Positions 14,177-33,554 of a stretch of 64,000 nt of DNA are shown here, piece after piece. How positions within the stretch are numbered: position 1 is the stretch's first letter; the number at the start of each line of letters is the position of its first letter. The notes beneath the pieces were generated by a model that did not search any database, was not told the DNA's origin, and was given only the letters and a program-made list of their open reading frames with translations. Source of the DNA: Candidatus Eiseniibacteriota bacterium (GTDB lineage Bacteria; Eisenbacteria; RBG-16-71-46); the NCBI GenBank assembly GCA_025360715.1, contig JANYBS010000005.1:5571-69570 (forward strand), written 5' to 3'. The translations under genes were made by a program, and so were the position numbers.

Positions 14177-15373
14177 CTACTGCGGCGGCGTGAAGACGAA
14201 CGGCGCCTGGAAGGCGGTCGCGCCGCCGCGGATGACCGGGAAGCGCCATTCGCGGATCTGCCCCAGCGCGCAATCCGCCAGACGGCTCGAGCCGAGCGTG
14301 TTGACCACCACATGCGCTTCGTCGACTTCGCCGCTCGCGGCGACCACCAGCGAGATCACCAGTTTGCCGCGAAGCGAAGGTTCGCGCTTGAGTTCGTTGC
14401 CGTAGCAGTACTGGATACCGGCGGAATACTTCTGGATCACGGCCAGCAACGATGCGTTGCTGCGGTAGACGCCGGGAGGCGCCACACCGCCGCTGCCACC
14501 GCCGTCACCGGGGCCGACGCCCGAGCCGTGGCCGGTGCCGACGCCGCCACCGCTGCCACCGCCAGAGCCGCCACCCGATCCACTACCGATGCCGTCACCC
14601 ACGCCGTCGCCGATCCCACCGCCCAAACCGCCGCCCGAACCGGCGCTGTGTCCGCCGCGGCCCGGATGCAGGTCCGCAAGCGCCACGAGCGTGCCCACCA
14701 CGACACTGTTGCCAAGGTCCGCGCCGGAGCCGCCACCGACTCGGCCCACGCCGCCGCCACCGAGCGCGTCCTCGCCGCGCGCGACGCGCAGCGAGCGGCC
14801 ACCGCCAGCGCGCAGGGGAGCGGCGCCCTCCGAACTGCTCGCGCTGCCGAGCGAAGCCGTCAGGCCATCGAGCGCGCTACTCACCGCGCGGCCGCCTCGT
14901 GAGCCACTGCCACCACCCAGCGCGTCAGCCAGTTCGGCCTGCGCGCGCGCGCGGCCACTGCCGCCATCGCCGCCCGCGGCATTCAGGTGCACGGGGCCGC
15001 TAGTTCCCGGGCCCGGTGCCAGATGTTCGGGCGCGATGACGCGCGCCACCTTCGAGAGACCGTCACCGCCGCCGCCACCACCGCCGCCGCCGGGCGTGTG
15101 TGTGGGGTCTGCCGCACCAGGTGCCACGACCGGAACGCTCACCGCATGCGTCTGCACGGCGAATTGCGGCGGCAACACCAAGCGCGCGTAGCGCGTCTCC
15201 GGCGCTGCGGCCACGGGCGCAGGCGCAAGGACGGTCGCCGGCATCAATCGTACGCCGACCATGAACACGGCGCCTGCCAGCGCCGTGCCCATGAGGCAGC
15301 GCCGGAACAGGGCGTCTCGCGGATCGAACATCGGGCGCTGGTACGCCGGTGCGGTCATGATATTCACGCGCAT
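14177..15373 (-). CDS. TonB-family / AgmX-PglI-like energy-transducer protein with long Gly-rich linker
   Basis: 398 aa. An N-terminal TM anchor (LMGTALAGAVFMVGV) is followed by Pro-rich and poly-Gly/Ser low-complexity segments. The C-terminal domain (YRSNASLLAVIQKYSAGIQYCYGNELKREPSLRGKLVISLVVAASGEV...) is TonB-C-like. It is the last gene of the ExbB-ExbD-ExbD operon. Confidence 0.65.
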   Translation of the reverse strand: MRVNIMTAPAYQRPMFDPRDALFRRCLMGTALAGAVFMVGVRLMPATVLAPAPVAAAPETRYARLVLPPQFAVQTHAVSVPVVAPGAADPTHTPGGGGGGGGGDGLSKVARVIAPEHLAPGPGTSGPVHLNAAGGDGGSGRARAQAELADALGGGSGSRGGRAVSSALDGLTASLGSASSSEGAAPLRAGGGRSLRVARGEDALGGGGVGRVGGGSGADLGNSVVVGTLVALADLHPGRGGHSAGSGGGLGGGIGDGVGDGIGSGSGGGSGGGSGGGVGTGHGSGVGPGDGGGSGGVAPPGVYRSNASLLAVIQKYSAGIQYCYGNELKREPSLRGKLVISLVVAASGEVDEAHVVVNTLGSSRLADCALGQIREWRFPVIRGGATAFQAPFVFTPPQ

Positions 15374-15377
15374 GGGT

Positions 15378-15860
15378 TCAGGCCTTCTTGAGTACGGCCA
15401 GCGCGATGTCGGGATAGCCGCTCTGATTCACGGTGTACATGACCTTCTGCAGTAAGCGGAACTCGATGTCCTGGTCGCCCTGGATCGTCACGAGGTGCTT
15501 ACGCATCGCACTCGTGTCGCGTGAAGCCGGAGCCTCGCGGCGCAGACGATCCGCCAACGGCGCGATCAACATCTGGTCGTCTGCGAGCGCCGCGGAAACG
15601 GTCGTGATGCGGTCCCCGCCGATCAGGATCGTGCCCTTGTCGATGGCGATCACGGTCGAGTTCTGCATCGCGGCCTCAGCTGTGGACTTGGGCAACGATA
15701 CGCTGGGCGGCGGCGTCGTCGCATCGCCACCTGTCACGAAACTCTTGAGCACGAAGAACAACAGCGTCGTGAGCACGTCCATCATCGACGTGAGGGAGAT
15801 GCCGGTCTCGGCGTGGCGCTGCCCCGCCCAGCGCTTGCGGCGGCCCCTTGTGCGGCGCAT
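15378..15860 (-). CDS. ExbD/TolR family biopolymer transport protein (paralog 1)
   Basis: 160 aa from ATG 15860 (MRRTRGRRKRWAGQ...ISLTSMMDVLTTLLFFVL). It has the single-TM ExbD/TolR topology and a periplasmic domain. Confidence 0.8.
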   Translation of the reverse strand: MRRTRGRRKRWAGQRHAETGISLTSMMDVLTTLLFFVLKSFVTGGDATTPPPSVSLPKSTAEAAMQNSTVIAIDKGTILIGGDRITTVSAALADDQMLIAPLADRLRREAPASRDTSAMRKHLVTIQGDQDIEFRLLQKVMYTVNQSGYPDIALAVLKKA

Positions 15861-15861
15861 G

Positions 15862-16341
15862 TCAGGCTCCCTTCGTGGTCGCGCCTTCGAGCGCGGTGTC
15901 GGTGAGCCCGGCCGCACGGGCCAGGTCCATGAGCGTGACGATCTCCTGATAGCGCGTGCCCGGTTCCGCGAGGATGCGGATCGCCTTGGTGCCCGGATGC
16001 GCCGCCGTGACACTGGCAAGTGCACGCGTGAGCGCCGCGGCCGTGGGCGCCGTCGGCGCGCCGTTCTCGTTCTGCCGGGTGACCGCGATCGCCGCCACAT
16101 CGCGGCCCTCGATCACATACGCCGAACCCTGCACACGCAGCACCAGGTCCAGCCCGGGAACACTCGCCACAGCGGAGTGAGCAGCGGGCGGCGGCGTCAT
16201 CTCGATCGCGCGGATCTCCATGAAGACCGCCGATAAGAGCAGCATCGGGATCAGCACGATGATCACGTTCATGAGCGGCCGCAACTCGAGCTGTGCCTCG
16301 GTGGATTGCTGCAACGCGCCCTTGCGGCGCATCCGCGACAT
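15862..16341 (-). CDS. ExbD/TolR family biopolymer transport protein (paralog 2)
   Basis: 159 aa (MSRMRRKGALQQSTEAQLELRPLMNVIIVLIPMLLL...). It is a second ExbD paralog, 1 nt upstream of paralog 1. Confidence 0.8.
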   Translation of the reverse strand: MSRMRRKGALQQSTEAQLELRPLMNVIIVLIPMLLLSAVFMEIRAIEMTPPPAAHSAVASVPGLDLVLRVQGSAYVIEGRDVAAIAVTRQNENGAPTAPTAAALTRALASVTAAHPGTKAIRILAEPGTRYQEIVTLMDLARAAGLTDTALEGATTKGA

Positions 16342-16344: not shown

Positions 16345-17067
16345 TTATTGCCCCGCCGCGATCGCCGGACGTGCCTGCACCGGTGCGGCCACCGGACGAG
16401 CCTGCGGCATCGCCACGACGCCCGCCGGGCGGTGCGCCTCGCGCGACTTCGTCAAAGCATGCGTCAGCCGGATGCTGGCTTCGTCGACCTGCTCGGCGAT
16501 GCCCTCGATCAGGCCCAGCAGATAGCCGTGGATCACCAGCGTCGGGATCGCGATCACGAGGCCGAATGCCGTGGCATTGAGTGCGGTCGAGATGCCGGCT
16601 GCCAGCAAGGAGCTGCGCTGGGAAGGATCGGCCGCGCCGACAGCGGTGAACGCCTGGATGAGTCCCGCGATGGTGCCCAGCAGTCCCAGAAGCGTGCAGA
16701 CGTTCGCCAGCACGTTCAGGTACGCCAACCGGCGCGAGAGCGGAGGCATCGCCAGCGTCGCCGCGTCGTCCGCCGCCATCTGCAAGTGGTTCGTGTCGGT
16801 ACCGTTCACGTCCAGGATCGCCTGCGCGATCATGGCGACCGGCGCGGTGCTCATGTGGCTCACCTGACGCGCACCCTGCACGTCTCCGGAGCCGATTCGG
16901 CGCGTGACGTCTTCGATCATCTTGCGGCTATCGAGCCGGGCAGCCTTGGAGATCACGAGGAAGCGCTCGACCACGATCGCGGCGATGACGATCGCCGTGG
17001 CGAGGATGAGATACATGAATACGCCGCCCTGCTTGAAGAAAGCGGCGATGGTCGAGAACTCGTTCAT
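16345..17067 (-). CDS. MotA/TolQ/ExbB proton-channel protein
   Basis: 240 aa (MNEFSTIAAFFKQGGVFMYLIL...) with three TM segments and the conserved ExbB/TolQ C-terminal helices. Confidence 0.85.
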   Translation of the reverse strand: MNEFSTIAAFFKQGGVFMYLILATAIVIAAIVVERFLVISKAARLDSRKMIEDVTRRIGSGDVQGARQVSHMSTAPVAMIAQAILDVNGTDTNHLQMAADDAATLAMPPLSRRLAYLNVLANVCTLLGLLGTIAGLIQAFTAVGAADPSQRSSLLAAGISTALNATAFGLVIAIPTLVIHGYLLGLIEGIAEQVDEASIRLTHALTKSREAHRPAGVVAMPQARPVAAPVQARPAIAAGQ

Positions 17068-17405
17068 CGTCGTAGCTCCTTGTCGTGCGCCAGCCGCACG
17101 CGGTTCACGAGGACCAGTGCCGGGAGCCGGGTGCTATCGGCGAGCTCCTGCGCGGTCTTCAGGTAGCGCCGATCCTGGAAGTCCAGGAACCGCCGCTGGT
17201 CCCGCGCGGTGATGAACAACACCTGCGGGGTGGGGATCTCACCTTCGATATGGATGTCCGACAGTTGCCGAGGAGCGTGTGACGCCGGCGCCGCTACAGC
17301 AGGGGCGGCCACCGATGCGCGGCGGGCGCGATGCGCGCGGGCGCTCCAAGTCGTCGCGGGCAGCAGCAGGGCCACCATCGTCACGGTGAGCACTGCGCGC
17401 TTCAC
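17064..17405 (-). CDS. Small exported hypothetical protein (signal peptide), co-operonic with exbB
   Basis: 113 aa with a signal peptide MKRAVLTVTMVALLLPATTWSARA. Its stop overlaps the exbB start (ATGA). No recognisable domain. Confidence 0.4.
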   Translation of the reverse strand: MKRAVLTVTMVALLLPATTWSARAHRARRASVAAPAVAAPASHAPRQLSDIHIEGEIPTPQVLFITARDQRRFLDFQDRRYLKTAQELADSTRLPALVLVNRVRLAHDKELRR

Positions 17406-18394
17406 CGTGCACCCGGCTTGTCGTCATCCGCGTGCGCCAGCGGCGTCGTGAACGCGCCGGCGAGCGAGTCGGGATCCTCGCTTGCACGTGCACGGTATGC
17501 GGCGAACCAGCGCGCGGCAGCCGCGTCGTCGAGCAGGTAGAAGCCGCTCAGGATCGTCATATTGTAGTAGGGACCGGGCAACGCCGCGTCGCGGGCGATC
17601 GCCGCCTCGAAGGCCTTCTGGGCGCCGGTCACATCGCCGGCGCGCAGCCGCAGGATACCCACGTTGTTGAGCGTCGCCGCGTTGTGCCCGGCCTGCTTCG
17701 CCGAACTCGCGAGCAGCTCTGCCGGTGACGGTGAGGCATCGCGCGCGCCCAGGTACACCCGCACCGGCGCCGCTGCTGCGTCATCGCCGGCCGCCGCGAG
17801 TGCGGCACGCGCCTCGCGCGGATGGCCCAATGCGTCGTGGTGCAACGCCAGCGCCGCGAGCAACCCTGCGCGCTCGTGCGGCGAGAAGGCCTCCGGGTGC
17901 TCGTTCACCACCGCCAGGACCGGTAGCGCCTCCGCGGATCGCCCTTCGGCAAGCAGCCAGCTCGAGAGCAGCGCCAGTGAGGGCGCGTGTTGCGGATCAC
18001 GCGTGATCGCCTCACGCACGGCGCTCTCGGCGGAGCCAAGGGAATCGGCCGCGCGCAGCGCGAGCGCCGCCCGGTAAGCCGGCGCGGGATCTTGAGGATG
18101 CGCCAGCATCGCGGCGCGTACCCGGGCCAGCGGAGACTCGGCAGGCGTGTCGCCGGCTGGTGCCACCGCGGCTGATGCCGGGACCGCCGCCTTCGCGTTG
18201 CGGCCGGAGCGCACCACGCCCGCGTGCGACCGCACGTCGGCAACAGCTCCGTGGCGGGCGAACAGGCGCATCCCACAGCCGCCCGACAGCACGGCCGACG
18301 CCAAGGTTGCACCTAGCAATGCACGCGATGCGAAACGCAGTGCGGGCCGGGAAGCCCGCATGAAGGAGCAAGCGGGCAGCAGGTGCTGGGTCAT
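17402..18394 (-). CDS. TPR-repeat lipoprotein
   Basis: Lipobox ...AVLSGGC near the N-terminus, followed by Ala-rich TPR-like helical repeats. Its start overlaps the stop of the giant upstream ORF (ATGA). Confidence 0.5.
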   Translation of the reverse strand: MTQHLLPACSFMRASRPALRFASRALLGATLASAVLSGGCGMRLFARHGAVADVRSHAGVVRSGRNAKAAVPASAAVAPAGDTPAESPLARVRAAMLAHPQDPAPAYRAALALRAADSLGSAESAVREAITRDPQHAPSLALLSSWLLAEGRSAEALPVLAVVNEHPEAFSPHERAGLLAALALHHDALGHPREARAALAAAGDDAAAAPVRVYLGARDASPSPAELLASSAKQAGHNAATLNNVGILRLRAGDVTGAQKAFEAAIARDAALPGPYYNMTILSGFYLLDDAAAARWFAAYRARASEDPDSLAGAFTTPLAHADDDKPGAR

Positions 18395-21300
18395 CGCGAG
18401 CCTCCTTCCTTCGGGTGTGTGCCACGCGGGGCGGCTTGACCGCTGTGCGCCTTGGGATTGTCCCGTTCGCCGCTTCGCGATTCGTCCTGCATCCGCGCCT
18501 GGGCATCTTCATCAACGAGCGGCATGTCCACTTCCGGATGGAATTGGAAGCGATCGGCGAGCCGCTCCCACAGCAAGCTCTGGGCCTGCGCGGTCCACGC
18601 GTCATCCGCGGCGTGTGCGCTGCGGACTTGCCGCAACAACTGCGTGAGAACGCCCACACCTCGGTCGCTGAAGACCTGGGCGCGCGAGCGCAGCACGTCG
18701 TCGTAGGCCGCGCGATCTGCGCCCGTAAGGTCAGCGGGGCGCTCGGCGTGCTGCAGGGCGTCGGCGAACGCGAGCAGCGATTGCCCCATGCGCAATGCCG
18801 AGGCATGTGCCCACAGCGGATCGCCCGAATCGACGCCGCGGCGATAGCGCGCCAGAAGGGTGTCGAGCAGCGCCTTCTTGACCGCGATGCTCTTGGGCAG
18901 CGGCTGCTTGAGCGCCACCGCATCGAACGAGCGCCGCACGTCTTCGCCCTGCGTGAATCGAAGCTGTGCCACGAGCGAGTGGGAGACCAGGTCGGGGTGC
19001 TTCGTCCCCAGTAGCAGATACGCCGCCAGGTGCGAAGGCGCTCCCGTCTGCCGGGTGCGCGCCGCCGGGAGCAAGGCAGAAAGTGGATGCTGTGCGTCGA
19101 CGGCGTCCAACTCGCGTTTCGCCAGCGCCGCCAGGATCGCCATCACCCCGGGCACGTCGTCGGGGTGCATGCGCATATAGGCGACCCGAAGCGAGTCCGC
19201 GCGGGCTGGAGCGCCCGCGCCGGCAAACAGCTCCGCCGCTTTGAGCTCGGCCGCGCCGGCGCCATCGTCCTTCGGGAAACCTGCGGCAAAGCGAAGGTAA
19301 GCATCAGCCGAAGCGCTGCTGCGGCCTGCGGCCTCGAGCGTCTGCGCGACCTGCACCTGCGCGTCGCGCGCATAGCCGCTGCGCGCATAGTGGTCCGTCA
19401 CGACGGCAAGCGCGCGCAAGGCTTCTCCGCGATCCCCAGCGCGCAGCCACGCAAGGCTCGCACGATATTGGGCCCGCGCTGCAAGGGAGTCCGCCGGGTA
19501 GCGTTGCGCCATCTGCTCGAATGCCTTCGCCATCGCGCGATGCGCCGAGGTATCGGTAGCGGCAGCCGCCTCGGCGGCGCGATAGGCGCACACCGGCATC
19601 GCCGCAAGTGCTTGACGCGCGAGCGTGTCGCGATGGGCACGGACCGCCAGGCGGGCGGCGGCGCCGAACGCAACCTCGGCTAGCGCGAAGTCTGCTTGCG
19701 CCACGAACACCTGGGCGCGCTGCGAGGCCGCCAGCGGCGCCCGCGCATCGTTGCTGTCGCGCGCCACGAACCGGGCCAGGTCCGCGCTTGCACGGTCCTG
19801 CCACCCATGGGCCAGCGCCAACTGGCCTTCGCGCCAGAGGATCTCGGGGCTATGCACGTGCGTGGGGAAGCGCTGCACGAATGCATCGCCCTCGTGCAGA
19901 ACGGCCTGCGCAAGACTGTCGGGACCACGTGCCGCGGCCGCGTTCGCATGCCGAGCGTGTTCGTATGCGGCGTCGACCAACGCGACGCGTTGCCAGAGCG
20001 CGACGACAGCGATGCTGTCGGCGCCGCCGCGAGCCGCGTCGGCGTAGTGCGCCATGGCTTCGTCCGTACGGCCCAGTCGCGCGCTTGCTTCACCGGCGGC
20101 CAAAGCGAATCGCGCAGCCTCCGGATCCTTCGCCCACTGCGCGAGCAACGCCAGGTCCAATTGCAGTGCCTGCGCCCACGCCTGCGGATCTCCGCTCGTG
20201 CGCGCGCGCTCATGCGCGAGCGCCGAAGCCTGCCGTGTCGCGTCATGCGCGAATGCATCGCCCGCCGCACGCAGCGAGTCGTTCGTCTGCGAACGGGCCC
20301 ACGCGCTCCCCGCGGCAAAACGCGGCGCCAGTGTAACGCGCGCCCCCTGCGCGTCGGCGGCACGATCCGCGCGCTCCCAGGTCGCCAACTCGCGCTGCGC
20401 GCTCAGCAGCGCCTGCGGTGTCTGGGGGTAACGTGCCAGGTAAGCTTCATCGGCCTGCGTCGCCTGGAGCAGCGCGCCGTGCGTGCGCAGGTGCTGCGCC
20501 AACGAAAGCAGCATCGGCGCCGCATACGGACGCTCGCCGAGCGTATCGAAGTACGCCACGAAGGCCGGCGCGCCACCCGCTCCGGCCAGCGCGATCACGA
20601 GGTAGTCGCCCGACTCCGTCCGTAAGTCCACTTGGGGGCGTTCTGCCGTGGTCTCGTAGCGGTCCAGCACGCTGCGGAACGCATCGGCGGCAGACAAGAA
20701 GCGGTCCTCGTTGAAGTGCGACCAGCCGCGTTTGTAGTCCGCGATCGCCGCCAGCGTCGGGTCACCACCGGGCGACGCGGTCGCGTGCGCATAGGCTTGA
20801 GCGGCCTCCACGTACCGCTTCGCTTGGAAACGCGCATCACCCATGCGCACCCATGCCTCGGCGCAGTAGGGCGAGCCGGGATGCTCACTCACGAGCGTGC
20901 GGAAGTCATGCTCGAACGCCGGATCGCCCGCGTCGGCCAGGATCATGCCAGCGTCGAAGAGCACCGCGTCGCGGTGCGGGAACGCCGGGTCGTTGGTGAG
21001 GATCTGCCGGTAGAGCGCCAAGGCACGGTCCTGTGCCAGCACGGGCACCGGGGCGCCGGGCTTCTCATGACGCAGGTACGCGGCCATCTGGTCGCGGAAC
21101 TGCTGGCGGGCGGCGAGCATCTCGAGGTCGGCCAGGCGGAAGCGCATCTCCCCGCGCACGGGAGAATCGGGGTAGTGGGCGAGGAACGCCCGCATGCGCG
21201 GCATCGCGACGGCGCGCAGCGCCGCAGCGCCTTGATCGTCCAAGGCGTCGTCCTGCTCCGTGCTCGCGGTTCGCGCGGTCGCTACACGAGCCGGCGCGAA

Positions 21301-24046: not shown

Positions 24047-24625
24047 TCAGCCCCTCCATGAGCGGCGCACCGCTCCGGTGATCGCATCGACCGTCACGAA
24101 CAGCGAGGCAGCACCCGGCGCGTGGTAGACGACAGTCCACGAGGTGGGATCCGGGTCGGCATCCCCGAACGCGCCGCGAGCCAGCAACATGGTCGCCACC
24201 TCGGCGGTCGCATGGCGGCCGAAGACACGCGCGGCTTCAGCGTCGGCAGCGCGGCGGGCGGCATCACTGTCGATCCAGCCTGCGTGCACCGGAGGAGCGG
24301 GCATGTGCCCCCCTAGGTCCTGTGCGGTCACGATGCGACCGTCACGAACGGAATAGGCGCGCGCACGGTCGAGGCTGGGGGAGTAGAACAGGTAGCCCCA
24401 GCGACCCGCGGCGCCATGTGCGTCGACCGGTTCGTCATTCTCCAGGTACACGAGAAACCCATCGGCGGCCCACGTCTGCGCCGCAGCGGTGGCCAGGCTC
24501 AGGCCGTCATGCGCGGCCACGCCCTGCCGGTCGCGCGCGTACGCGTTGGCCGCCAAGAGGAGCGCGCCGGTGAGCAGTGCGCCGGTGAGCAGCGCGATGC
24601 CGAGTGAGAAACGATTGGGATGCAT
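24047..24625 (-). CDS. Exported hypothetical protein
   Basis: 192 aa with signal peptide MHPNRFSLGIALLTGALLTGALLLAANAYA. No recognisable domain. Confidence 0.45.
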   Translation of the reverse strand: MHPNRFSLGIALLTGALLTGALLLAANAYARDRQGVAAHDGLSLATAAAQTWAADGFLVYLENDEPVDAHGAAGRWGYLFYSPSLDRARAYSVRDGRIVTAQDLGGHMPAPPVHAGWIDSDAARRAADAEAARVFGRHATAEVATMLLARGAFGDADPDPTSWTVVYHAPGAASLFVTVDAITGAVRRSWRG

Positions 24626-25549: not shown

Positions 25550-26188
25550 TCACCTCCCAAGGATCCTGTAGGAGAGCCCGAGCCGAATCGTCCAATCCGC
25601 AAACGTCTCACTGGCGCGAACGATGTCTGCGCCGCTGCGATGCGCCGTGTCGAGCGCGAACCACTCACGCGTGGCTTCACCGCTGGCGGACCAGCCGCCC
25701 GCGAGCGGGCGCTCGACTGCCAGGCCGACGCTGGCGCTGCCCGTGTCGATGGGAGCAAGGCGCACCGGCGTCGAGGTGCCCGTTCCTGTCGCCACATCCA
25801 CATGATCCGGCGCGTAGCCCAGATGCAGCAGGCCGGCGCCCGCCTGCAGCGACCACTTCGCACCCAACCTGCGCGCCATCGTGGCTCGGGCAACGAGCTC
25901 GGCGCGCGTGCGATGGACATCGGGAGACGCGCTTGCGAGCGAGGCGTCGAGTTGTTGCGTGGTCACGGTGCGCCAGACACGCACTCCCAGCGATCCGCGT
26001 AGGACCGATGCGCGTACTTCCGCGCCCAGACCCGCTCGGGCACGCAGGTTCCACTGATAGTCGGCCAGGTGCGGGTCAGCGAGCGTGGTACCGCTCAACA
26101 CGCCGGCGGACAGCACCGCGGCATGGACCGGGCACGCGCTCACCGCGATCAGGTACACCGCGGCGCAGGCGATGACGAGGCGACGCAT
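25550..26188 (-). CDS. Small outer-membrane beta-barrel-like exported protein
   Basis: ATG at 26188 (MRRLVIACAAVYLIAVSACPVHA). 212 aa, beta-rich, C-terminus ...LSYRILGR. It overlaps the upstream gene's stop. Confidence 0.4.
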   Translation of the reverse strand: MRRLVIACAAVYLIAVSACPVHAAVLSAGVLSGTTLADPHLADYQWNLRARAGLGAEVRASVLRGSLGVRVWRTVTTQQLDASLASASPDVHRTRAELVARATMARRLGAKWSLQAGAGLLHLGYAPDHVDVATGTGTSTPVRLAPIDTGSASVGLAVERPLAGGWSASGEATREWFALDTAHRSGADIVRASETFADWTIRLGLSYRILGR

Positions 26189-26826
26189 CAGCGAGATTCC
26201 TGTGCGGCCATCGCCGGTGCGGGCACGGGGTTCCTGAACTCCATGCCCACGGGCAGGATCTGCATCTCGTTCGAGCGGAAGGGCGTCACGACGATCGTAT
26301 CGCCCTGGATGCGCTCGATCTTCTGACCCGAGCCCATGTAGCAAAGCAGGAACACGCCGCCATGCCCCGCGCCTGTGGAGTCGAGCACGGTGGGGATGTG
26401 GCCCTGAAAGGTGAATGTTAGCGGCTGGATCAGATGGTCCCAGCCCGTGACGGGGATCAACGCCCGGCCCAGCGTCGTGGAGTGGGCGAGCAGTGAATCG
26501 ATGTCGGTCGCCATGCGCAGGCGTTGAGCGTCGGGCGCCACCTCCACCGTGCCGGGGTCGATCGTGGCGCTCGCGCGCAGTTCCGCGACGGCGTATCCAG
26601 TGACGATGTGCCGGTAGGTGATGGTGGCCTGCACCGAGACCGATTCCTGCGCGCCCAACGTGACCGTCTCGAAAGGTGTGAGGTTCGAGTGCAGCAGGTC
26701 GACGCGCGTCCAACGATCCTCGAGCTTGGGCGCATCGAAGCACCCGCTGAGCAGCGCGGACGTGGCCATGCCCATGACGGCAAACCTGACCATGGCGGCC
26801 GGCCGGCGCAGGTGTGCGGCGTTCAT
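26188..26826 (-). CDS. Lipoprotein, hypothetical
   Basis: ATG at 26826, with a lipobox LLSGC after MNAAHLRRPAAMVRFAVMGMATSA. About 212 aa. Confidence 0.45.
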   Translation of the reverse strand: MNAAHLRRPAAMVRFAVMGMATSALLSGCFDAPKLEDRWTRVDLLHSNLTPFETVTLGAQESVSVQATITYRHIVTGYAVAELRASATIDPGTVEVAPDAQRLRMATDIDSLLAHSTTLGRALIPVTGWDHLIQPLTFTFQGHIPTVLDSTGAGHGGVFLLCYMGSGQKIERIQGDTIVVTPFRSNEMQILPVGMEFRNPVPAPAMAAQESR

Positions 26827-28466
26827 CGCACCACCGCCACGCGGCGCGTCTCGTGCGTGGCACCGGCGTCGAGACGATAGAAGTAGACCCCGGCCTTCAC
26901 GTCGTGGCCGCGATCGTCCGTGCCGTCCCACGCGACGTCCTGAAGACCGGCGGTAGCCAGCGGCGCGAACGTGCGCACGCGCCGGCCGTTGGTATCGTAG
27001 AGCGCGAGTTCCGGCCTGCTGCGCAGGTTCGCGGGCAGCACGAACGAGATACGCGTCACGGGCTTGGCCGGGTTGGGCGAGTTGCCGAGCAGTTGTGCGC
27101 GCGTCGCGCTCACGCCGCTGCCGGTGGCACGGAAGGCCGCCTGTGCCACGTCGTCGGCGCCGTTGTGGTACGCCGAGCGGGCGTTCACGCCGAGCACGAG
27201 GTCGCTTCTACCCTGGAAGCCGCTCAGGTCGTCGGCGTTGAGCGCGATGGTGCGCGCGCCGGCGTCCAGCACGCCCAGGTCGCGCGTGGTGAGCGTGCGA
27301 CCACTCGCCGCATCGCGCACCGTGAGCGTGACGGCAGCTCGGTCGGTGAGAAGGAAGCTGGCGACCGGGGCGGCCGTGGCATCCACCGCGAGATTCGCGA
27401 CGCCGGCGCCAAGGTTCCAGAGCCGCATCCCGTTCGCGCCGTCCCAATCCTCCATCGTGAGAGCGCCCGCCTCCGCCGTGCGCGCCTGGGTGCCATCGCG
27501 GTGGTCATGCACACTGGCGAACGCCACGTGCACGTTGCGCGGGTGCTCCAAGCCGGAGCTCATCTGCGCCACCGGCTCAAGAGCCGCGTTGAACTTGGCG
27601 AGCACGCCTTGCTGCGGCGCCGCGGCGTAGACGTTGCCCCACGCATCGGTCGACAGCGACGTCACGGCATCGGCTCCCGAGGGCGCGGCTCCCGCCCACC
27701 GCAGGCTGCCGCCTTGCATCTGCAGTCGGACGATGCGGCGATTGTGGGCATCCGCCACATAGACGGTATTCGTGTTGGCACCGTTCGCGCGCCCTACGGT
27801 GATCGCCATCGGGCCCGCGAAGGCGCCGTCGCCATTGCCAAGGCCGCCGATCGCGCCCAACGGCCGGGCGCCGGCCGCGCCCAGTGCGAACGCGGCCACC
27901 TGGTTGCGGCCCGTGTCGGCCACGTAGAGCAGGTCGTCCTCCGGGTGGAACGGCGTGCCGTTGTCCGAGACGGCCACGTCGTACGGCGCGTGCAGGCCGC
28001 CGATCACATAGAGAGGTTTCAGGGTCAGGTGCCCGTACTCGGGCACGGCCTGGAGCACGACGATGCGGTCATTGCCGCGGTCGGCCACGTAGACACGGTC
28101 GTTCTCATCCACCGCCATGCCGCGCGGCTCGGAGAGCGCACCCGCAGTCGTGCCCGAACCATCGAAAGCCGAGAGCGTCTGGCCCGGTTCGCTGCACACC
28201 AACCGGTTCCATTGCGGATCGCTGGCGATCTGGAAGCGCCGCGTCTCCACGTAGGGAAACACGTCGTAGATATCGGTGTCGGTGATCAGGACCGTGGCGT
28301 AGGGCTGCGAGAACACATCGCGCCCGAGTTGCGCGCGGGCGACCGAGCGATCGAGCGCGTCCACGCCCAGCGCCGGCAGGAGCGGCGCGTGCGTGAACGT
28401 CGCCGCGTGGGCCGACGCTGCAGCCGCCATCGTGAGGCCCAGAGTCAGAAGCGTGCGCTTGCGCAT
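26823..28466 (-). CDS. NHL-repeat beta-propeller protein with FlgD-Ig / T9SS-like C-terminal sorting domain
   Basis: ATG at 28466 is preceded by AAAGGAG. The signal peptide is MRKRTLLTLGLTMAAAASAHA. NHL-like blades include PRGMAVDENDRVYVADRGNDRIVVL and TVYVADAHNRRIVRL. The C-terminus NSPNPAKPVTRISFVLPA...LALYDTNGRRVRTF...WDGTDDRGHDVKAGVYFYRL matches the FlgD-Ig-like / T9SS C-terminal-domain consensus. Confidence 0.65.
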   Translation of the reverse strand: MRKRTLLTLGLTMAAAASAHAATFTHAPLLPALGVDALDRSVARAQLGRDVFSQPYATVLITDTDIYDVFPYVETRRFQIASDPQWNRLVCSEPGQTLSAFDGSGTTAGALSEPRGMAVDENDRVYVADRGNDRIVVLQAVPEYGHLTLKPLYVIGGLHAPYDVAVSDNGTPFHPEDDLLYVADTGRNQVAAFALGAAGARPLGAIGGLGNGDGAFAGPMAITVGRANGANTNTVYVADAHNRRIVRLQMQGGSLRWAGAAPSGADAVTSLSTDAWGNVYAAAPQQGVLAKFNAALEPVAQMSSGLEHPRNVHVAFASVHDHRDGTQARTAEAGALTMEDWDGANGMRLWNLGAGVANLAVDATAAPVASFLLTDRAAVTLTVRDAASGRTLTTRDLGVLDAGARTIALNADDLSGFQGRSDLVLGVNARSAYHNGADDVAQAAFRATGSGVSATRAQLLGNSPNPAKPVTRISFVLPANLRSRPELALYDTNGRRVRTFAPLATAGLQDVAWDGTDDRGHDVKAGVYFYRLDAGATHETRRVAVVR

Positions 28467-28495: not shown

Positions 28496-29641
28496 TCACT
28501 GGAAGCGAAGCTCGAGTCCGGTCTCGAGGATGTTCGCGGAGTAGTTGTTGCTGTTGAAATAGCGCTCGTAGTGCAGCCAGAGCGCAGGCGCGCCCAGATG
28601 CGGGTGCGCGGCGGCGAAGCCGTCCATGTCCAGGTGGAGCGAGACCCCGAAGAGATGCGAGGCCAGGTCATTCATGCGGTAGTCGGCCGTGCGATATCCG
28701 CCGATGCCGTTCACGCTGGCGTATTCGTGCGCATAGAAGTCCGCCTTGCCCTGCGTGTACCAGCGGTACTCCCAACTCGTGCTGAGCGCGTGCGTCACGT
28801 ACTGGCTCAGATCCGCGCTCAACTCGTGCGAAGTGATGCCCCAGTCATCGTTGTAGAGCCGATAGTCGGCTTTGATGCTCGAGCGGTTCGCCATGTAGTG
28901 GCTGAGCTTGACGAACGCATCGCGGCGCTCGCGGGTGGAGGGATGACGCTCGGGGACGCGCGTGCCGCCGGCGTAGACGTTGCGGTAGATGTTGTGTTGC
29001 AGGCCTTCCACGTGGAACAACTCGACGCCGCCGCGCACCAGCGTGCTCGGGCTGAGCACCTGTGTGGCGACCACGCTGCCATGGAGCGTGTTCTTGTGCT
29101 GCCGGATGGAAGCCGAGCGCTCGTCGGCGAGTGGCGTGATCGCGTCCCAGCCGTAGCTGGTCGACACGGCCACGTTGAACGTCTGGTCGCGGAGATCCCG
29201 GTCGGCGTGCGCGCCGAACTGCTGGCCCAGATAGTCGACCTCGCGCGACACGTAGTATTCGGCGCCCACGTGCGACCGCGCGATCTCGGCGGTCAGCTCG
29301 TTGCGCGTCTTCACATAGTCTTCGAAGGCGTTGCCTTCGATCGGCCGGCTCGCAGTCGTGATCGCGTCGATCGCGTCCTGGCTGCCGGCTGGCGCCGAGA
29401 TCGCGGGAATCGTGACCTGCTCGTTGTTCCAATGCAGCGACAGCGATTCCGCGCCATGGCCGAGCGGAGCCGCATAGTCGCCGCTCATGGCACGCACGCG
29501 CACGCCGCCCGAGTCCGTGAACAACCGGAACATGGAATACAGCGAAGCTTCCTCGGCCACCGTGGCCGAACGCGCACGCGTGGCGCAGAGCGCCGAAAGC
29601 GCGAGCGTGAACGCCGCCCCATGAGTCCGCTTCAGTTGCAC
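28496..29641 (-). CDS. DUF3570 family exported protein, copy 2
   Basis: GTG at 29641 overlaps the DUF4266-2 stop by 10 nt, the same geometry as copy 1. The signal peptide is (M)QLKRTHGAAFTLALSALCATRA. It shares motifs with copy 1: IDAITTAS vs IDGITGAS, and DYRLYNDDWGITSHELSADL vs YRRYWDDWDIRSHTIDVRY. Confidence 0.65.
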   Translation of the reverse strand: MQLKRTHGAAFTLALSALCATRARSATVAEEASLYSMFRLFTDSGGVRVRAMSGDYAAPLGHGAESLSLHWNNEQVTIPAISAPAGSQDAIDAITTASRPIEGNAFEDYVKTRNELTAEIARSHVGAEYYVSREVDYLGQQFGAHADRDLRDQTFNVAVSTSYGWDAITPLADERSASIRQHKNTLHGSVVATQVLSPSTLVRGGVELFHVEGLQHNIYRNVYAGGTRVPERHPSTRERRDAFVKLSHYMANRSSIKADYRLYNDDWGITSHELSADLSQYVTHALSTSWEYRWYTQGKADFYAHEYASVNGIGGYRTADYRMNDLASHLFGVSLHLDMDGFAAAHPHLGAPALWLHYERYFNSNNYSANILETGLELRFQ

Positions 29642-29880
29642 GCGCAGCCTCCGCCGGCGCCGCCGGTGCCGCCCGTGGAGCCTTCTCGGGCCTCGAATGC
29701 TTTCATCTGTCGAGCTTTGAGCTTGGCCTGTGCATCCAGCGAGACGATACGGTCGACCAGATGCTCGCGTTGATACACCGCCACCGGCGCAGCACACCCG
29801 CCTGCGCCCAACGCGGCTGCGAGCGCACTCATCGCGACCGCCACGACCGCCACCTTCTTGCCAAGCTGATTGCGGTTCAT
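29632..29880 (-). CDS. DUF4266 family small lipoprotein, copy 2
   Basis: 82 aa with lipobox LGAGGC and C-terminus ...GSTGGTGGAGGGCACN, compared with GGGCGCN in copy 1. The TlpA-2 stop overlaps its ATG as ATGA. Confidence 0.7.
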   Translation of the reverse strand: MNRNQLGKKVAVVAVAMSALAAALGAGGCAAPVAVYQREHLVDRIVSLDAQAKLKARQMKAFEAREGSTGGTGGAGGGCACN

Positions 29881-30452
29881 CGCGACCCTCCCTCGTTACT
29901 GCTCGCGGCCACCGCATGCCCGGCAAGCAGGCGCATGGCCTGATCGCGAAGTTCGGCGACCGCTGCGTCATCACTGCGGTTCGTCACGTACACCACACGG
30001 CCGTCACGATCGAGCACGACCGCCACCGGCACATTCGTGAGTGCCAGCTGCTTGGCCAGCCCTTCGGGGCCGTCCGCGAACACGCTCAGATGCAGCGCGT
30101 GGTCGCGGATGAAGCGCTGGATGTTGCCGTGGTCCGTATCCAGCGAGACGGCGAGCACGCGGCCACCCGCAGCCTGGAGCGCGTGGTCGAGCGCATCCAG
30201 CCGCGGCAGCTCGCGCCGGCACGGCGCACACCACGTCGCCCACAGGTCCACGACGACCACCTGGCCCTTGAGATCCGCCAGCGTCAGCGCGCCACCATCC
30301 AGACGCTGGAACGTGTGGGCGGCCAGCGCCGTCGCGGCGGCCTCGCGGCTCACGCCGAGTCCGGCGCCCGCCGCGGCCGCTTGCGTTGATCGCGGCGTAG
30401 CCGATGCCAGCGCAGCCGCCAGCAGAAGTGCCGACACTCGGTACGCTTGCAT
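29877..30452 (-). CDS. TlpA-like thiol:disulfide oxidoreductase (WCAPC), copy 2
   Basis: ATG at 30452 (MQAYRVSALLLAAALASATPRSTQAAAAG). Motif VVDLWATWCAPC. 191 aa, starting 8 nt after the stop of the cytochrome gene. Confidence 0.8.
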   Translation of the reverse strand: MQAYRVSALLLAAALASATPRSTQAAAAGAGLGVSREAAATALAAHTFQRLDGGALTLADLKGQVVVVDLWATWCAPCRRELPRLDALDHALQAAGGRVLAVSLDTDHGNIQRFIRDHALHLSVFADGPEGLAKQLALTNVPVAVVLDRDGRVVYVTNRSDDAAVAELRDQAMRLLAGHAVAASSNEGGSR

Positions 30453-30460: not shown

Positions 30461-32431
30461 TCACTTGTACTGGGCGCCCAGCAGCACCCAGAGGTTGAAG
30501 AGACGCTTCTCGTCGGCGGTGAGCGAATCGCTCGTGGCCGGGTGTGCGAGTTGACCCGCATGCGAGCCCAGCGCCATGACGTAGTCGACCAGTGGCGAGC
30601 GGCGCGGGAAGGCGGGATCGACTTCCTGGTGCGCGAGCTTCATCGACTCGCCCGACAGGTTGATGTACGCGCGCGGGAAGATGCCGCGCATGCGGCTGGT
30701 ATCCGCTACCGCGGTCAGGTCCAAGCCGCCGGCCGCCGGCGTGCTGCCGTTCGGCGTATGGCACGACATGCACTTGGCGGTCACGATCGGACCGATGTCG
30801 TTCTGGTAGTTGATGACGCGAAAACTCGCGCGCGGCTTGTTCAAGTCGAAGGCCGGTTGGTGCGCGGCCATCGGATCCGGATTCGTCGACACCGGCCCGC
30901 CCACGCGGCGATCCTCGTGGCAGCCGACGCAGTTCTTGAACTCCTCGCCCGGCCGCACATAGAGATGGGTGCGCTTCACCACGATGCCGCGGCCATGCTC
31001 GTCGAGCGTTGCGAAGCTGATCGGTGTATTCGCGGGGATCTTGATCCGGAACGAACCGTCGGGATAGACCGGCGCCATGCCGATCAGCGCGCGTTTCTCG
31101 AATTCGTTCGCCGAGAAGTCATTCATCTCACCGACCACCGTGGGCCGCGCGGCGATGACCGCGATGCTGTCGATCGGCTGCTGGCCGCGGATCGGGACTT
31201 CCTGGCCGTCGCTGGTGCTGCGATTGAACACGTCCTGCGCCAGGAACACGCCATAGTCGACCGAGTGGTCCACGATCGAGGCGATGACCGGCGGCTTCGC
31301 ATGCGGCGCCAGGAGCTGCGCATCGAGTTCCTGGGTGCCCGCGTCGTTGTAGAGGAACGTCAGGTCGTGGATCGCGAAGGTGGCCGGGCTGGCCACGGTG
31401 CCGGCGCCCGTCTGGTCCAGCGTGAAGGTATAGAGCGCGTAGTCCGTCTGGTCCTTGGTCGCGGCCGGCAGCGAGTACGAGACCACGTAACGATTGCCAC
31501 CGATGGAGCGCGCGTACTTGAACGCACCGTGCGGCCACGGCATGCCGTCCTCGTTCACCTGCGGGGTCAAGACGTCCCAGTGCAGGTCTTGCGGGCCCAG
31601 TTCCGGATCCGCCGGGCCCTGTTCGGGCTTGAGCACGGCGATAGGGCCCTCGTCGCCATTGACCATGGTGGAGCCGATGGCGATGAGGCGGCCTTCGGGC
31701 GTGACCGTGGGGTGGAAGAAGTTCATCCCATGCGGACCGAACTTGTGGAACGTGCCGGTGCCGTCCGGATTGGTCACGAAGAGCGGGAATCGGTTCATCG
31801 TGCCGAAATGCTCCCAGCGCGTGTACACGATGCGGCCGTCAGGCAACAGCTCGGGGTCGAAGTCGTCCGATTGATTGAAGCTGACTCGCTCGATGTTGCT
31901 GCCGTCATAGTCGCACGTATGCAGCGTGGCGCTCGGGGCGTGGTTGTATTCGTCCATCTCGCCGGCGCGCGTACTGGTGAACATCACGCGGCCATCGGGC
32001 AGGTAGAGCGGGTCGAAGTCGTCGCCGCCGCCACTTGTGACCTGGCGCATGTTCGTGCCATCGGCATCGATCTCGTAGATGTTGCGCTGCGAGCCGCCGG
32101 ACGGGCGCATCGAGAAGAGGATCTTCTTGCCATCGAACGAGACCGCCGGATCCGAGATGCTGGCTCCCGTGAAGCTCGTGATCGGCGTCACCAAGCCATC
32201 CGGGGAGATCGGCGAGAGCTTGTACAGGTTGCTGCTGGCGTTCGTACGATTGAGCGTTTCAGAGGAAGTGGCCTTCACGAATACGAGCGCTTGCGTCGTA
32301 CTCACCTGCTGGATCAGGTCGCTTGGCGCGCTCTCGCGACAACCGGTCAACGCGCCGGGCAGCAGCAGTACCGCGAGCCAGAGGGCAAGCGGCTTGAGGC
32401 GTAGGTGTTTCTCGAGGGGGTGTGCGTGCAT
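30461..32431 (-). CDS. TolB/PD40-like beta-propeller fused to diheme c-type cytochrome (hydrazine-synthase-alpha-like architecture) lipoprotein
   Basis: ATG at 32431 gives a lipoprotein signal MHAHPLEKHLRLKPLALWLAVLLLPGALTGC. PD40-like blades include FDGKKILFSMRPSGGSQRNIYEIDADG, LPDGRVMFTS and LPDGRIVYTR. The C-terminal region has two CXXCH heme-binding motifs (NCVGCHEDR and KCMSCHTPNG). 656 aa. Confidence 0.65.
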   Translation of the reverse strand: MHAHPLEKHLRLKPLALWLAVLLLPGALTGCRESAPSDLIQQVSTTQALVFVKATSSETLNRTNASSNLYKLSPISPDGLVTPITSFTGASISDPAVSFDGKKILFSMRPSGGSQRNIYEIDADGTNMRQVTSGGGDDFDPLYLPDGRVMFTSTRAGEMDEYNHAPSATLHTCDYDGSNIERVSFNQSDDFDPELLPDGRIVYTRWEHFGTMNRFPLFVTNPDGTGTFHKFGPHGMNFFHPTVTPEGRLIAIGSTMVNGDEGPIAVLKPEQGPADPELGPQDLHWDVLTPQVNEDGMPWPHGAFKYARSIGGNRYVVSYSLPAATKDQTDYALYTFTLDQTGAGTVASPATFAIHDLTFLYNDAGTQELDAQLLAPHAKPPVIASIVDHSVDYGVFLAQDVFNRSTSDGQEVPIRGQQPIDSIAVIAARPTVVGEMNDFSANEFEKRALIGMAPVYPDGSFRIKIPANTPISFATLDEHGRGIVVKRTHLYVRPGEEFKNCVGCHEDRRVGGPVSTNPDPMAAHQPAFDLNKPRASFRVINYQNDIGPIVTAKCMSCHTPNGSTPAAGGLDLTAVADTSRMRGIFPRAYINLSGESMKLAHQEVDPAFPRRSPLVDYVMALGSHAGQLAHPATSDSLTADEKRLFNLWVLLGAQYK

Positions 32432-32466
32432 GGTGGTGATCCGAACCTCCCGCGACGGTCCGCCGT

Positions 32467-33102
32467 TCATGGCTGGACCGTGCGATAGAACGAGAGCCCG
32501 ATCGTTCCCTGCGAATACGGGTAGGTCACGACACCTTCGTGGTCGCGCTGCTGGCCGAACACGATCGCGTGACGCAGGTCGGCGCGAAGCGCCAGGTCAT
32601 TGCGGATGAAGCATTCGAGCCCGCCACCGATGGAAAGGCTGTTCTTCGTCACAGCGGTCGCGTCCACGGCGCGACCTGGGAAAACGACGATCATCCCGTA
32701 ACCCGCCGTGAGGTAGGGCTGGAGCCGCCCCGACACCGGGCGACGGACGATCGCGCTCAATGTGTGCAACACGGCATGCACGGAAGGCGATGGGTTGTGT
32801 GCCAGCGAGGCTTCGTAGCCGAGCCAATCGCTGGGGTGGTACGCCGCGCGGATCACGAAGAGCGGATCGCTCCCGAACCAGCCGTAACCCGGACTGAACG
32901 CCAGCCGGTTCTGGTAGGGCCGCACGCCTGGCGCCAGCTGGTAGGGGTGCTCGGCCAGCGCCGGATTGAGCGCTTCAAGCACGCGCTTGGGAGCTGCAGG
33001 CGGCGTGAACGAGACGGCCGACGTATCGGCGTCCTGCGCCGCCGCCATGCGGGCGCCAGTGAGCGCTAACCCTAAGGTCATCGCGATGAACAGCGCGCGC
33101 AT
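32467..33102 (-). CDS. Outer-membrane beta-barrel (OmpW/OmpA-like) protein
   Basis: ATG at 33102 (MRALFIAMTLGLALTGARMAAAQD). About 210 aa of alternating beta-strand pattern, ending ...IGLSFYRTVQP. Confidence 0.45.
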   Translation of the reverse strand: MRALFIAMTLGLALTGARMAAAQDADTSAVSFTPPAAPKRVLEALNPALAEHPYQLAPGVRPYQNRLAFSPGYGWFGSDPLFVIRAAYHPSDWLGYEASLAHNPSPSVHAVLHTLSAIVRRPVSGRLQPYLTAGYGMIVVFPGRAVDATAVTKNSLSIGGGLECFIRNDLALRADLRHAIVFGQQRDHEGVVTYPYSQGTIGLSFYRTVQP

Positions 33103-33554
33103 CAGTGCAATACCCCGGCCTGGATCCATCCACGGATCGCGACATAGTCGCTGTCCGCGCGTGAGGCGAAAGTCTTGTACGGATGCGGGTGCCCACCCGC
33201 CGCAAGGTCGAGCGGCTGCTGGAGCACCGCGCTGCTGTCGGCCGCGACGGTGGAGGTCTGCAGCGAGACCTGCGCGAAGTCGTACGCGCTGTCTTTCGCG
33301 TCGGGAGGTGAGAGCTGCAGTGTGCCGCGGATGCCACCCCCGTGACAGTCACCCGTCGCGTCACAGCCCATGCGTTGCAGGCGCGGCTCGACGTCGCTCT
33401 GGAAGCGCGCGTAGTCGAGCGTCAATGTGTGCCCGCCCGCGGGCGGCGCCGGCGGCGCGGTCGGCGAGACACAGCTTTGCGCGAGGGCGGACAACGCGAG
33501 CGACGTGAGCAGGACCGCGGCGCTGCGCGTGCGATCCTGCGGTCGTTCGAACAT
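33102..33554 (-). CDS. Small exported hypothetical protein
   Basis: 150 aa with signal peptide ...AAVLLTSLALSALAQSC. Its stop overlaps the downstream start (ATGA). Contains CDATGDCHGG, which is not a CXXCH motif. Confidence 0.4.
   Translation of the reverse strand: MFERPQDRTRSAAVLLTSLALSALAQSCVSPTAPPAPPAGGHTLTLDYARFQSDVEPRLQRMGCDATGDCHGGGIRGTLQLSPPDAKDSAYDFAQVSLQTSTVAADSSAVLQQPLDLAAGGHPHPYKTFASRADSDYVAIRGWIQAGVLH

Follow-up and report, generated by a model that had tools for sequence, protein, structure and literature searches.

A conserved 20-gene string of Eiseniibacteriota and Krumholzibacteriota that probably joins an Agl/Glt-like motor to a flavin/haem/thiol electron-transfer module

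The core complex of the Agl/Glt machinery consists of GltC, D, E and G, of AglR, Q and S and of one extra gene (Luciano et al. 2011, PMC3169522). It is found clustered in Gammaproteobacteria, in one Betaproteobacterium, in Geobacter and in Fibrobacter, where no function was assigned to it, and the core complex alone was held insufficient for motility (PMC3169522). The gene order is GltC-GltD-GltE-extra gene-AglR-AglQ-AglS-GltG in Geobacter and GltK-GltB-GltA-GltC-GltD-GltE-GltF-GltG in Anaeromyxobacter (PMC3169522 Table S3). In the 2011 survey, Glt versions carrying barrels were limited to Myxococcales and Bdellovibrionales (PMC3169522). In a published AlphaFold model of Agl-Glt, AglR5-Q-S with GltG resembles TolQ5R2-TolA, the tail and linker of GltG wrap GltD, a strand of GltF pairs with the GltG tail, and the adhesin propeller sits on GltK/GltAB (PMC11761067). 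A second kind of system is built around DUF3570, a protein covalently flavinylated by ApbE; it occurs in ApbE-DUF3570-thioredoxin-like-DUF4266 clusters, in which DUF4266 carries a CxC motif (Meheust et al. 2021, PMC8238504), and stand-alone DUF3570 systems are present in many bacteria (PMC8238504). Outside myxobacteria the Agl/Glt core complex has been without an assigned function since 2011, as has electron transfer based on flavinylated DUF3570 since 2021. Here we describe a string of minus-strand genes in which relatives of both systems stand side by side. It lies in a stretch of 64,000 nucleotides (the window; positions are counted from its first letter) from contig JANYBS010000005.1 of a Candidatus Eiseniibacteriota bacterium (GCA_025360715.1, positions 5,571 to 69,570). 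As judged from sequence and gene order, the string probably joins an Agl/Glt-like proton-driven motor to a flavin/haem/thiol electron-transfer module, the two acting together. Both components are of known kinds; their combination is new. Full-text literature searches gave no paper describing a Glt/redox fusion or Glt-like clusters in Eiseniibacteriota or Krumholzibacteriota.

Because the G+C content of the window is about 68%, raw lists of open reading frames (ORFs) are noisy. Genes were called by an analysis of third-position GC and reading frame, by translations with candidate starts and by gene calls made independently on contigs of this organism from metagenomes. The three approaches agreed on 19 consecutive minus-strand genes, g1 to g19, running from 33554 down to 14177, as the initial annotation had read them. 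From g1 to g19 the junctions measure -1, -4, +8, -4, -10, +29, -4, -1, +40, +8, +2, +2, -4, -4, -4, +3, +1 and +4 nucleotides (range -10 to +40), with overlaps at 9 of the 18. The tight coupling annotated earlier was retained with corrections: the largest internal gap is 40 nucleotides (25510-25549) instead of 41, a supposed 1-nucleotide shift at 16341/16345 is a 3-nucleotide gap, and the gap between ApbE-2 and g1, given as 111 nucleotides, measures 182. The start of g9 (stop side 25550) was corrected to 26188, giving a 1-nucleotide overlap with the upstream stop. In a consensus scan of the string, sigma-70-like sites numbered 0 against 1.3 expected, and terminator-like sites 8 against 7.2 expected, showing no excess. 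Each of the 19 products, nearly all of which had been called exported or membrane-bound, has an N-terminal signal peptide, lipobox or membrane anchor. Pfam and NCBIfam recovered all the families named before (OMP_b-brl; PD40 with HZS_alpha and two CxxCH; AhpC/TlpA; DUF4266; DUF3570; NHL with a FlgD_ig/type IX secretion system (T9SS) C-terminal domain; SH3 with OMP; TPR; MotA_ExbB; two ExbD; a TonB_C-like domain), but the product at 25550-26188, annotated as an outer-membrane protein, matches no family.

The arrangement is conserved. When 185,579 species-representative genomes were scanned, with a g10 alignment as anchor, 62 loci were obtained. In tblastn searches with the 20 window proteins, ApbE-2 and g1-g19 kept their order and a common strand in all 65 related loci, from 62 species-level genomes with protein identities of 28-75%; the genes are syntenic in relatives and not scattered. 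Both a redox gene and g13 are spanned by 36 loci, and 16 extend from ApbE-2 through g18. Median junctions are at most 37 nucleotides, except for that from ApbE-2 to g1; at the boundary of the redox and middle parts they are 28 nucleotides (g6 to g7) and 9 nucleotides (g7 to g8). In three relatives reached through g13 homologues the complete string is present with unchanged order, but the downstream neighbours differ in each. By label, the 62 scan loci comprise 21 from Eisenbacteria/Eiseniibacteriota, 13 from Krumholzibacteriota (or its class names), two from Latescibacteria, one from Fibrobacteraceae, 21 unlabelled and four with implausible labels. Gene content and order mark the string as a supra-operon of 20 genes conserved in Eiseniibacteriota and Krumholzibacteriota. 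The four implausible labels (L011, L012, L013, L029) belong to Acidiferrales, Limnocylindria, Saccharimonadaceae and Udaeobacter metagenome-assembled genomes (MAGs) whose g10 is 59-72% identical; the entire Eisenbacteria-type loci in them are probably due to binning contamination or mislabelling. Long fusion-like ORFs occur sporadically, each in a single locus, and are possibly assembly errors.

The unit begins one gene earlier than in the initial annotation, at ApbE-2, and comprises 20 genes. In each of the 35 loci that yielded both genes ApbE-2 precedes g1, with a spacer whose median length is 284 nucleotides and which exceeds 100 nucleotides in 94% of cases. As this is the only junction with a long median spacing, we define a 20-gene unit with a probable regulatory region before g1. 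The spacer of the window is probably the site of a promoter/operator or of a regulatory element. In Eisenbacteria loci a semi-conserved motif, TGCA-N3-6-CGCACGA, immediately precedes the ribosome-binding site of g1. It was considered as a sigma-54 site and rejected as such, the GG-GC spacing being 3 nucleotides too short, and an Rfam scan of 13000-36000, spacer included, gave no match.

The lower part of the string, 14177-23184, is identified by its gene order and profile matches as an Agl/Glt-type core complex. Position for position, the window order lipoprotein (g8), g9, SH3 barrel (g10), g11, g12, g13 and on to g19 matches the orders in Geobacter and Anaeromyxobacter. Word-index searches with g13, the g19 tail and g16 gave only close relatives among the matches listed; for g13, no more than 11 of 5.8 billion proteins were word-sharing homologues. 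A phmmer search with g16 against 1.84 billion representatives, however, returned a large full-length set beyond its own lineage, at 32-41% identity and 105-145 bits. The genomic contexts of four of these outgroup relatives were inspected. Three lie in TPR-small gene-ExbB-ExbD-ExbD-AgmX clusters (L072/L073, L074 and L077, from a deltaproteobacterial MAG, a Myxococcales MAG and, for L077, an unlabelled metagenome contig), and L076 ends at a contig edge. The outgroup layout is a TPR protein of 583-646 amino acids, a second of about 1130, a small gene, ExbB, two ExbD and a TonB_C-like protein. With the GltG model the tail proteins score 62-115 bits; the long TPR protein of L072 matches NCBIfam gliding_GltE weakly (28 bits) in its C-terminal part, and the first ExbDs have Asn or Ser instead of Asp.

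Profiles of the window families were then scored against the outgroup proteins of L072 and L074. The g13 profile matched the 1136-amino-acid TPR protein beside ExbB in the deltaproteobacterial L072 with 195 bits, and the g14 profile matched the C-terminal part of the GltD-like proteins (49.3 and 39.5 bits). For g15, the scores against the small gene between TPR and ExbB were 17.1 bits (L074) and 9.3 bits (L072), and g15 and the outgroup small genes share [IV]xIxGxxxxPxxxFI. The g16 profile found the ExbB of the clusters (238 and 186 bits). The g17 profile preferred the first ExbD (82 and 76 bits, against 7.7 and 6.5 for the second), the g18 profile matched the second (130 and 104 bits), and the g19 profile matched the TonB_C-like protein (81 and 80 bits). 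At the level of profiles, g13 and g15-g19 are orthologous to the proteins of these clusters. Compared through these MAG clusters, the resemblance to the Agl/Glt core is as follows: the nearest relatives of g16 outside its lineage stand in Glt-type clusters, as for AglR; two non-equivalent TolR paralogues, g17 and g18, directly follow g16, like AglQ/AglS; g19 has the anchor, linker and AgmX/PglI tail of the GltG type; and g13, an exported TPR protein of more than 1000 amino acids directly upstream, is GltD-like by way of the L072 profile. As in the described clusters, all genes stand in one co-directional region, with the motor missing from six related loci. The string differs by its permanent junction to a flavin/haem/thiol module and by a T9SS-tagged propeller.

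At the position of the proton-binding Asp, g17 has N25, invariant in 28 of 28 sequences, and g18 keeps the membrane Asp as D28 (25 of 25). With Asn fixed in g17 and Asp in g18, the two are predicted to form a heterodimeric plug in which only one residue can be protonated. The locus shows that such a pair of two different TolR-like subunits, only one of them with Asp, is an old trait of the motor family. The g19 protein consists of about 25 cytoplasmic residues, an N-terminal hydrophobic membrane anchor, a Gly-rich linker and an AgmX/PglI C-terminal domain, and matches NF033760 (gliding_GltG) with 54 bits over model positions 458-648; no cytoplasmic FHA domain was found in it. An anti-phage defence role of the Zorya-like kind was considered for the locus and rejected, as there is no PADLOC match.

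The initial annotation had called the motor Ton-like. Its families are indeed those of a proton-driven inner-membrane motor, but the Ton class is imprecise: because of the AgmX/PglI tail, and because the nearest outside relatives of g16 stand in GltG-like clusters, the motor is Agl/Tol-like and not classical Ton. A classical Ton system would energise TonB-dependent transport, for example through the TonB-dependent-receptor-like barrel encoded nearby at 35086-37923, with the TPR proteins as accessories. It would account for the MotA_ExbB and ExbD matches and for the weak TonB_C match, and exbB-exbD-exbD-tonB operons are common. However, the TonB_C score of g19 (21.9 bits) stays below the Pfam cut-off of 24.6, as does TIGR01352 below its own (18.3 against 27.1), whereas the AgmX/PglI score is far above threshold. 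Solved ExbB/TolQ chains reach only 36-38 bits with g16, as compared to 105-238 bits for its relatives from Glt clusters, and the Asp is lost in the first ExbD paralogue. Moreover, the conserved unit has no Plug/TonB_dep_Rec gene, and in the available upstream flanks of the relatives (less than 1 kb) no counterpart of the receptor-like gene was seen. We consider a classical Ton system very unlikely.

Tol-Pal (TolQ5R2-TolA, TolB, Pal, CpoB/YbgF) also shares features with the string, which has homologous motor subunits, a TolA/TonB-like spanner, a TolB-like propeller in g3 and a YbgF-like TPR block in g13. Among NCBIfam models, TolQ and TolR fit g16-g18 best, g13 reaches 84.9 bits with tol_pal_ybgF and g3 reaches 70.3 bits with TolB, as a Tol-Pal paralogue serving outer-membrane integrity or constriction would predict. 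These scores are nevertheless far below the equivalog cut-offs, with only ybgF coming just below (cut-off 90.1). The unit contains no Pal/OmpA-like peptidoglycan-binding gene, and the propeller of g3 is fused to an HZS-alpha domain and a domain with two haems. The two distinct TolR paralogues with one Asp between them, the GltG-type tail and the nearest relatives in Glt-type clusters also speak against it, and we consider this explanation very unlikely, too.

Between motor and redox genes lies a middle part, g7-g12, whose likeness to the myxobacterial platform is one of order. The stop of g7 overlaps the start of g8 by 4 nucleotides. The g7 product, which scores 27.9 bits against a cut-off of 23 with TIGR04183 and is matched in PDB by PknD-sensor and Pizza propellers, is predicted to be secreted or surface-attached. 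Likeness of g8-g10 to GltK/B/A is limited to position and general barrel type. The barrel of g10 (SH3_3, 28.0 bits; OMP_b-brl, 29.9 bits) is paralogous to that of g2, with an hhalign probability of 80%. For g9, neither a Pfam or NCBIfam match nor an hhalign relation to g2 or g10 was found; it is possibly an outer-membrane barrel. Together, g11 and g12 occupy the position that GltC has in other clusters. The mean column identity of g11 is 58%; its weak family matches suggest that it probably consists of two PepSY-like repeats, and its single-sequence AlphaFold model was unusable (pLDDT 47). No counterpart of g12 was found in the outgroup clusters, and Pfam scans of its orthologues gave coiled-coil noise only. 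At E<=10, NCBIfam searches with g1, g8, g9, g11, g12, g14 and g15 matched no Glt models, and g14 itself gives no match to the GltE model. No PDB relatives of g13 were found. With this string the range of barrel-carrying Glt-type machines widens to Eiseniibacteriota and Krumholzibacteriota.

Such an order invites the idea of a true gliding or surface-transport machine that moves the T9SS-attached g7, as Agl-Glt does with CglB or Bacteroidota with SprB, the redox genes serving for maturation only. The Glt-type core, barrels, lipoprotein and surface propeller do follow the order of the myxobacterial platform and adhesin, g7 has its T9SS sorting domain, and the folding of GltK and CglB is redox-dependent in Myxococcus. 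On the other hand, g7 has one Cys and no VWA domain, and the core complex alone was held insufficient for motility, as said above (PMC3169522). Domains of the cytoplasmic platform (GltI, GltJ, AglZ, MglA) were found in none of the 20 genes. Since these are missing and g19, in contrast to M. xanthus GltG, has no FHA domains, a trafficking gliding motor of the Myxococcus type is unlikely, and we judge gliding as the function of the string to be extremely improbable.

The families and motifs of the upper part, 28496-34759, identify it as a divergent paralogue of the flavinylation-linked electron-transfer cluster with ApbE, DUF3570, DUF4266 and TlpA. The same four families stand in one cluster, with all four Pfam matches above cut-off, and the conserved CxxC, the CxC and a candidate target serine are present. 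In g4, the WCxPC motif is conserved and the TlpA model NF047696 scores 83.4 bits; in g5, the C-terminal GGCxC tail, which holds the CxC, and the lipobox Cys are conserved in orthologues. DUF3570-2 (g6) is divergent, with a partial match of about 110 bits as compared to 288 bits for the canonical copy of the window, DUF3570-1, and no PDB relatives of DUF3570 were found. It has one candidate flavinylation site, D-A-I-T-T-A-S98, whereas DUF3570-1 has two motifs of the [S/T]GA[S/T] kind, TGAS93 and TSAS110. Among 55 orthologues, where the site takes the form D-A-I-T-[T/S]-A-S-R-P, D92, T95, A97, S98, R99 and P100 are invariant or nearly so, S98 in 55 of 55; the published motif has Gly where Thr or Ser stands here.

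The canonical cluster of the window (module 1: TlpA-1, DUF4266-1, DUF3570-1 and ApbE-1; 11280-14170, plus strand) converges on the end of the string. It is 30-36% identical to the redox module of the string, with 33% for the two TlpA and 36% for the two ApbE proteins. With so low an identity, the module of the string is an old paralogue, and a recent duplication of module 1 as its origin was rejected. The module of the string also differs from described ApbE/DUF3570 systems in that three extra genes, g1, the g2 barrel and the dihaem propeller g3, stand between ApbE and the other members. The g1 product has the motif GC-x4-5-CHGGGxR, with C64, C70, H71 and GGG invariant in 43 of 43 orthologues; its C-x5-CH possibly attaches haem c in a non-canonical way or binds a metal. 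In the g3 lipoprotein a TolB-like beta-propeller is followed by a middle domain of the hydrazine-synthase-alpha type and, at the C-terminus, by a domain bearing two CxxCH sites for haem c. Its lipobox and both CxxCH are kept in 48 orthologues. In PDB, TolB chains match at residues 91-177 and hydrazine synthase alpha (5c2v) at 523-638, g3 thus sharing propeller, middle domain and dihaem C-terminal domain with the latter. It differs in being a lipoprotein and in its low score with NCBIfam hydrazine_alpha (86.6 bits against a cut-off of 800), and the organism is not an anammox bacterium. No hydrazine synthase beta or gamma genes stand beside g3, whose neighbours are the barrel and TlpA.

Thus the string brings together two halves, and their physical or functional coupling seems the likelier case, the one basis for it being the fixed gene order across two candidate phyla. 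Motor and platform roles were assigned by analogy with the Myxococcus model. The TolQ-like channel g16 and the heteromeric TolR-like plug g17/g18 would use the proton gradient and convert proton flow into movement of the membrane-anchored g19. The TonB-type C-terminal domain of g19 would dock on the g13 pillar, the g14 lipoprotein and the strand motif of g15. Force would pass via g13-g15 and the connectors g11/g12 to an outer-membrane platform, g8-g10, that would hold the T9SS-exported propeller g7, in positions like those of GltK/B/A/C and the adhesin in myxobacteria. In the redox half, ApbE-2 would attach flavin mononucleotide (FMN) to DUF3570-2 at Ser98, and TlpA-2, through its CxxC, and DUF4266-2, through its CxC, would pass thiol electrons to this FMN, from which the chain would extend to the g3 haems and perhaps to g1. 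The motor would apply force to, or gate, an outer-membrane or surface complex with redox cofactors, whose substrate would be external or periplasmic. The synteny supports the initial reading of one or a few long operons as far as the unit is concerned; a single envelope-spanning physical assembly of the products is what we infer, and with it the contacts between proteins, the path of the electrons and the way in which the halves are coupled.

Several observations weigh against a joint machine. Six Eisenbacteria loci (L013, L015, L016, L023, L028 and L029) have no ExbB/ExbD/ExbD genes; in these g15 abuts or overlaps g19, by 4 nucleotides in three of the six. In two divergent loci, L030 and L053, the ExbB-like gene is the only one of the motor kept, and TlpA is absent. 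In view of these loci the motor is separable; in motor-less genomes it may be supplied from elsewhere in the genome. ApbE-2 of the window differs from its orthologues in that none of the frames upstream of the mature domain shows a signal peptide or an anchor, and no gene for a DsbD/CcdA electron donor was found in the window. No homologue of GltC, the TPR connector of about 550-750 amino acids upstream of GltD, was found, and g11 and g12 gave no match to the 583-amino-acid TPR protein of L072. Since profile comparison with the outgroup clusters detected no relatives of g8-g12, the assignment of these genes to a platform is positional only. No redox or barrel genes were found near the three outgroup clusters. 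Each half also occurs alone elsewhere, since plain Glt-type clusters without redox genes and stand-alone DUF3570 systems, such as module 1 of the window, exist; each half is therefore self-sufficient in other settings. Finally, the organisms are uncultured.

These points lend weight to another explanation, that two or three independent systems, redox and Glt/Tol-like envelope, share one conserved transcription unit or neighbourhood through co-regulation or historical accident, with no physical interaction. Besides the separate occurrence of the halves and the loss of motor genes from the locus, it is consistent with the lack of a reliable Rosetta-stone fusion across the halves. The fusion of the g3, TlpA and DUF4266 equivalents in L008 (a single 917-amino-acid ORF at 713-3466), which is either real or a long-read frameshift, stays within the redox half. 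However, the colinearity in all 65 loci, over two candidate phyla and down to 28% identity, and the tiny junctions at the boundary of the halves are not what independent neighbours would be expected to show, and the redox module is an old dedicated paralogue, not a recent arrival. Gene order kept this deeply is usually limited to interacting products. We regard independent systems as possible, if on the unlikely side, and favour a joint action of motor and redox module.

A more specific form of this joint action can be put forward tentatively, and is doubtful as yet. In it, the Glt core would be a proton-driven actuator of an outer-membrane or surface module, here a flavin/haem electron conduit, and proton flow across the inner membrane would mechanically gate, assemble or move the redox chain and the propeller. 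If true, such a 'mechano-redox' envelope machine would point to what the Glt core complex and the DUF3570 system each do. In any case, as the halves are locked in a fixed order over two candidate phyla, each gains a candidate partner and testable interactions. The coordinates of the 20 genes and of the spacer are collected in Table 1.

Table 1. Genes of the 20-gene unit and the spacer between ApbE-2 and g1, listed from the ApbE-2 end (window positions).
Feature	Product	Position	Strand	Matches and remarks
ApbE-2	FAD:protein FMN transferase	33737..34759	-	Pfam ApbE 263.9 bits
Spacer ApbE-2/g1		33555..33736	-	182 nucleotides; sole conserved long gap of the unit
g1	150-amino-acid probable lipoprotein	33102..33554	-	no Pfam or NCBIfam family
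g2	small outer-membrane beta-barrel	32467..33102	-	OMP_b-brl 27.2 bits (cut-off 28.7); TIGR04565 29.6 bits
g3	669-amino-acid lipoprotein	30461..32470	-	HZS_alpha 66.2 bits; PD40 38.7 bits
g4	TlpA-2, periplasmic thioredoxin-fold thiol:disulfide oxidoreductase	29877..30452	-	AhpC-TSA 71.3 bits; Redoxin 62.9 bits
g5	DUF4266-2, small lipoprotein	29632..29880	-	DUF4266 47.2 bits
g6	DUF3570-2, divergent DUF3570	28496..29641	-	DUF3570 110.6 bits, partial match
g7	NHL-repeat beta-propeller with C-terminal T9SS type A sorting domain	26823..28466	-	NHL 45.8 bits; FlgD_ig 51.1 bits
g8	212-amino-acid lipoprotein	26188..26826	-	no family match; lipobox LSGC conserved; GltK position (Anaeromyxobacter)
g9	212-amino-acid exported protein	25550..26188	-	signal peptide, strand-like C-terminus; GltB position
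g10	periplasmic SH3 and outer-membrane beta-barrel, 'OMP_myx_plus'	24634..25509	-	TIGR04565 68.6 bits (cut-off 60); GltA position
g11	192-amino-acid exported protein	24047..24625	-	weak PepSY matches in 10 of 27 orthologues, best E 0.0021
g12	285-amino-acid exported protein, coiled-coil N-terminal half, unclassified C-terminal domain	23187..24044	-	weak coiled-coil family matches only
g13	1597-amino-acid exported TPR protein, YbgF/CpoB-like TPR block, GltD-like	18391..23184	-	TIGR02795 (tol_pal_ybgF) 84.9 bits
g14	330-amino-acid TPR lipoprotein	17402..18394	-	TPR families; lipobox GGC conserved; GltE position
g15	113-amino-acid exported protein	17064..17405	-	motif I-x-I-E-G-E-I-x-x-P-Q-V-L-F-I; position of GltF / core-complex extra gene
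g16	TolQ/ExbB/AglR-like proton-channel subunit	16345..17067	-	MotA_ExbB 84.1 bits
g17	first TolR/ExbD-like subunit	15862..16341	-	ExbD 48.5 bits
g18	second TolR/ExbD-like subunit	15378..15860	-	ExbD 49.0 bits
g19	GltG-type TonB/TolA-like protein	14177..15373	-	NF033768 (AgmX/PglI) 80.5 bits (cut-off 40)

The start of ApbE-2 is uncertain, with an ATG at 34759 and an ORF that stays open to 35047. At the other end, the stop codon of g19 ends at 14177 and that of ApbE-1 lies at 14170, which leaves the 6 nucleotides between the convergent genes reported initially. A 12-nucleotide inverted repeat (14182-14193 / 14218-14229; 92% complementary, 24-nucleotide loop) lies inside the 3' end of g19, 12-59 nucleotides past the ApbE-1 stop; a T run does not follow it. 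The adjacency of module 1 is specific to the source organism, and relatives carry other genes downstream of g19. Divergent from ApbE-2, the TonB-dependent-receptor-like barrel at 35086-37923 (plus strand) is of the CarboxypepD_reg and OMP_b-brl_3 families. Also on the minus strand, the window encodes an FeoB ferrous-iron transporter and a DtxR-type iron-dependent repressor (50674-53757) and, at 56351-63181, a 1212-amino-acid protein without a Pfam family followed by two more proteins that end in a FlgD_ig-type C-terminal sorting domain.

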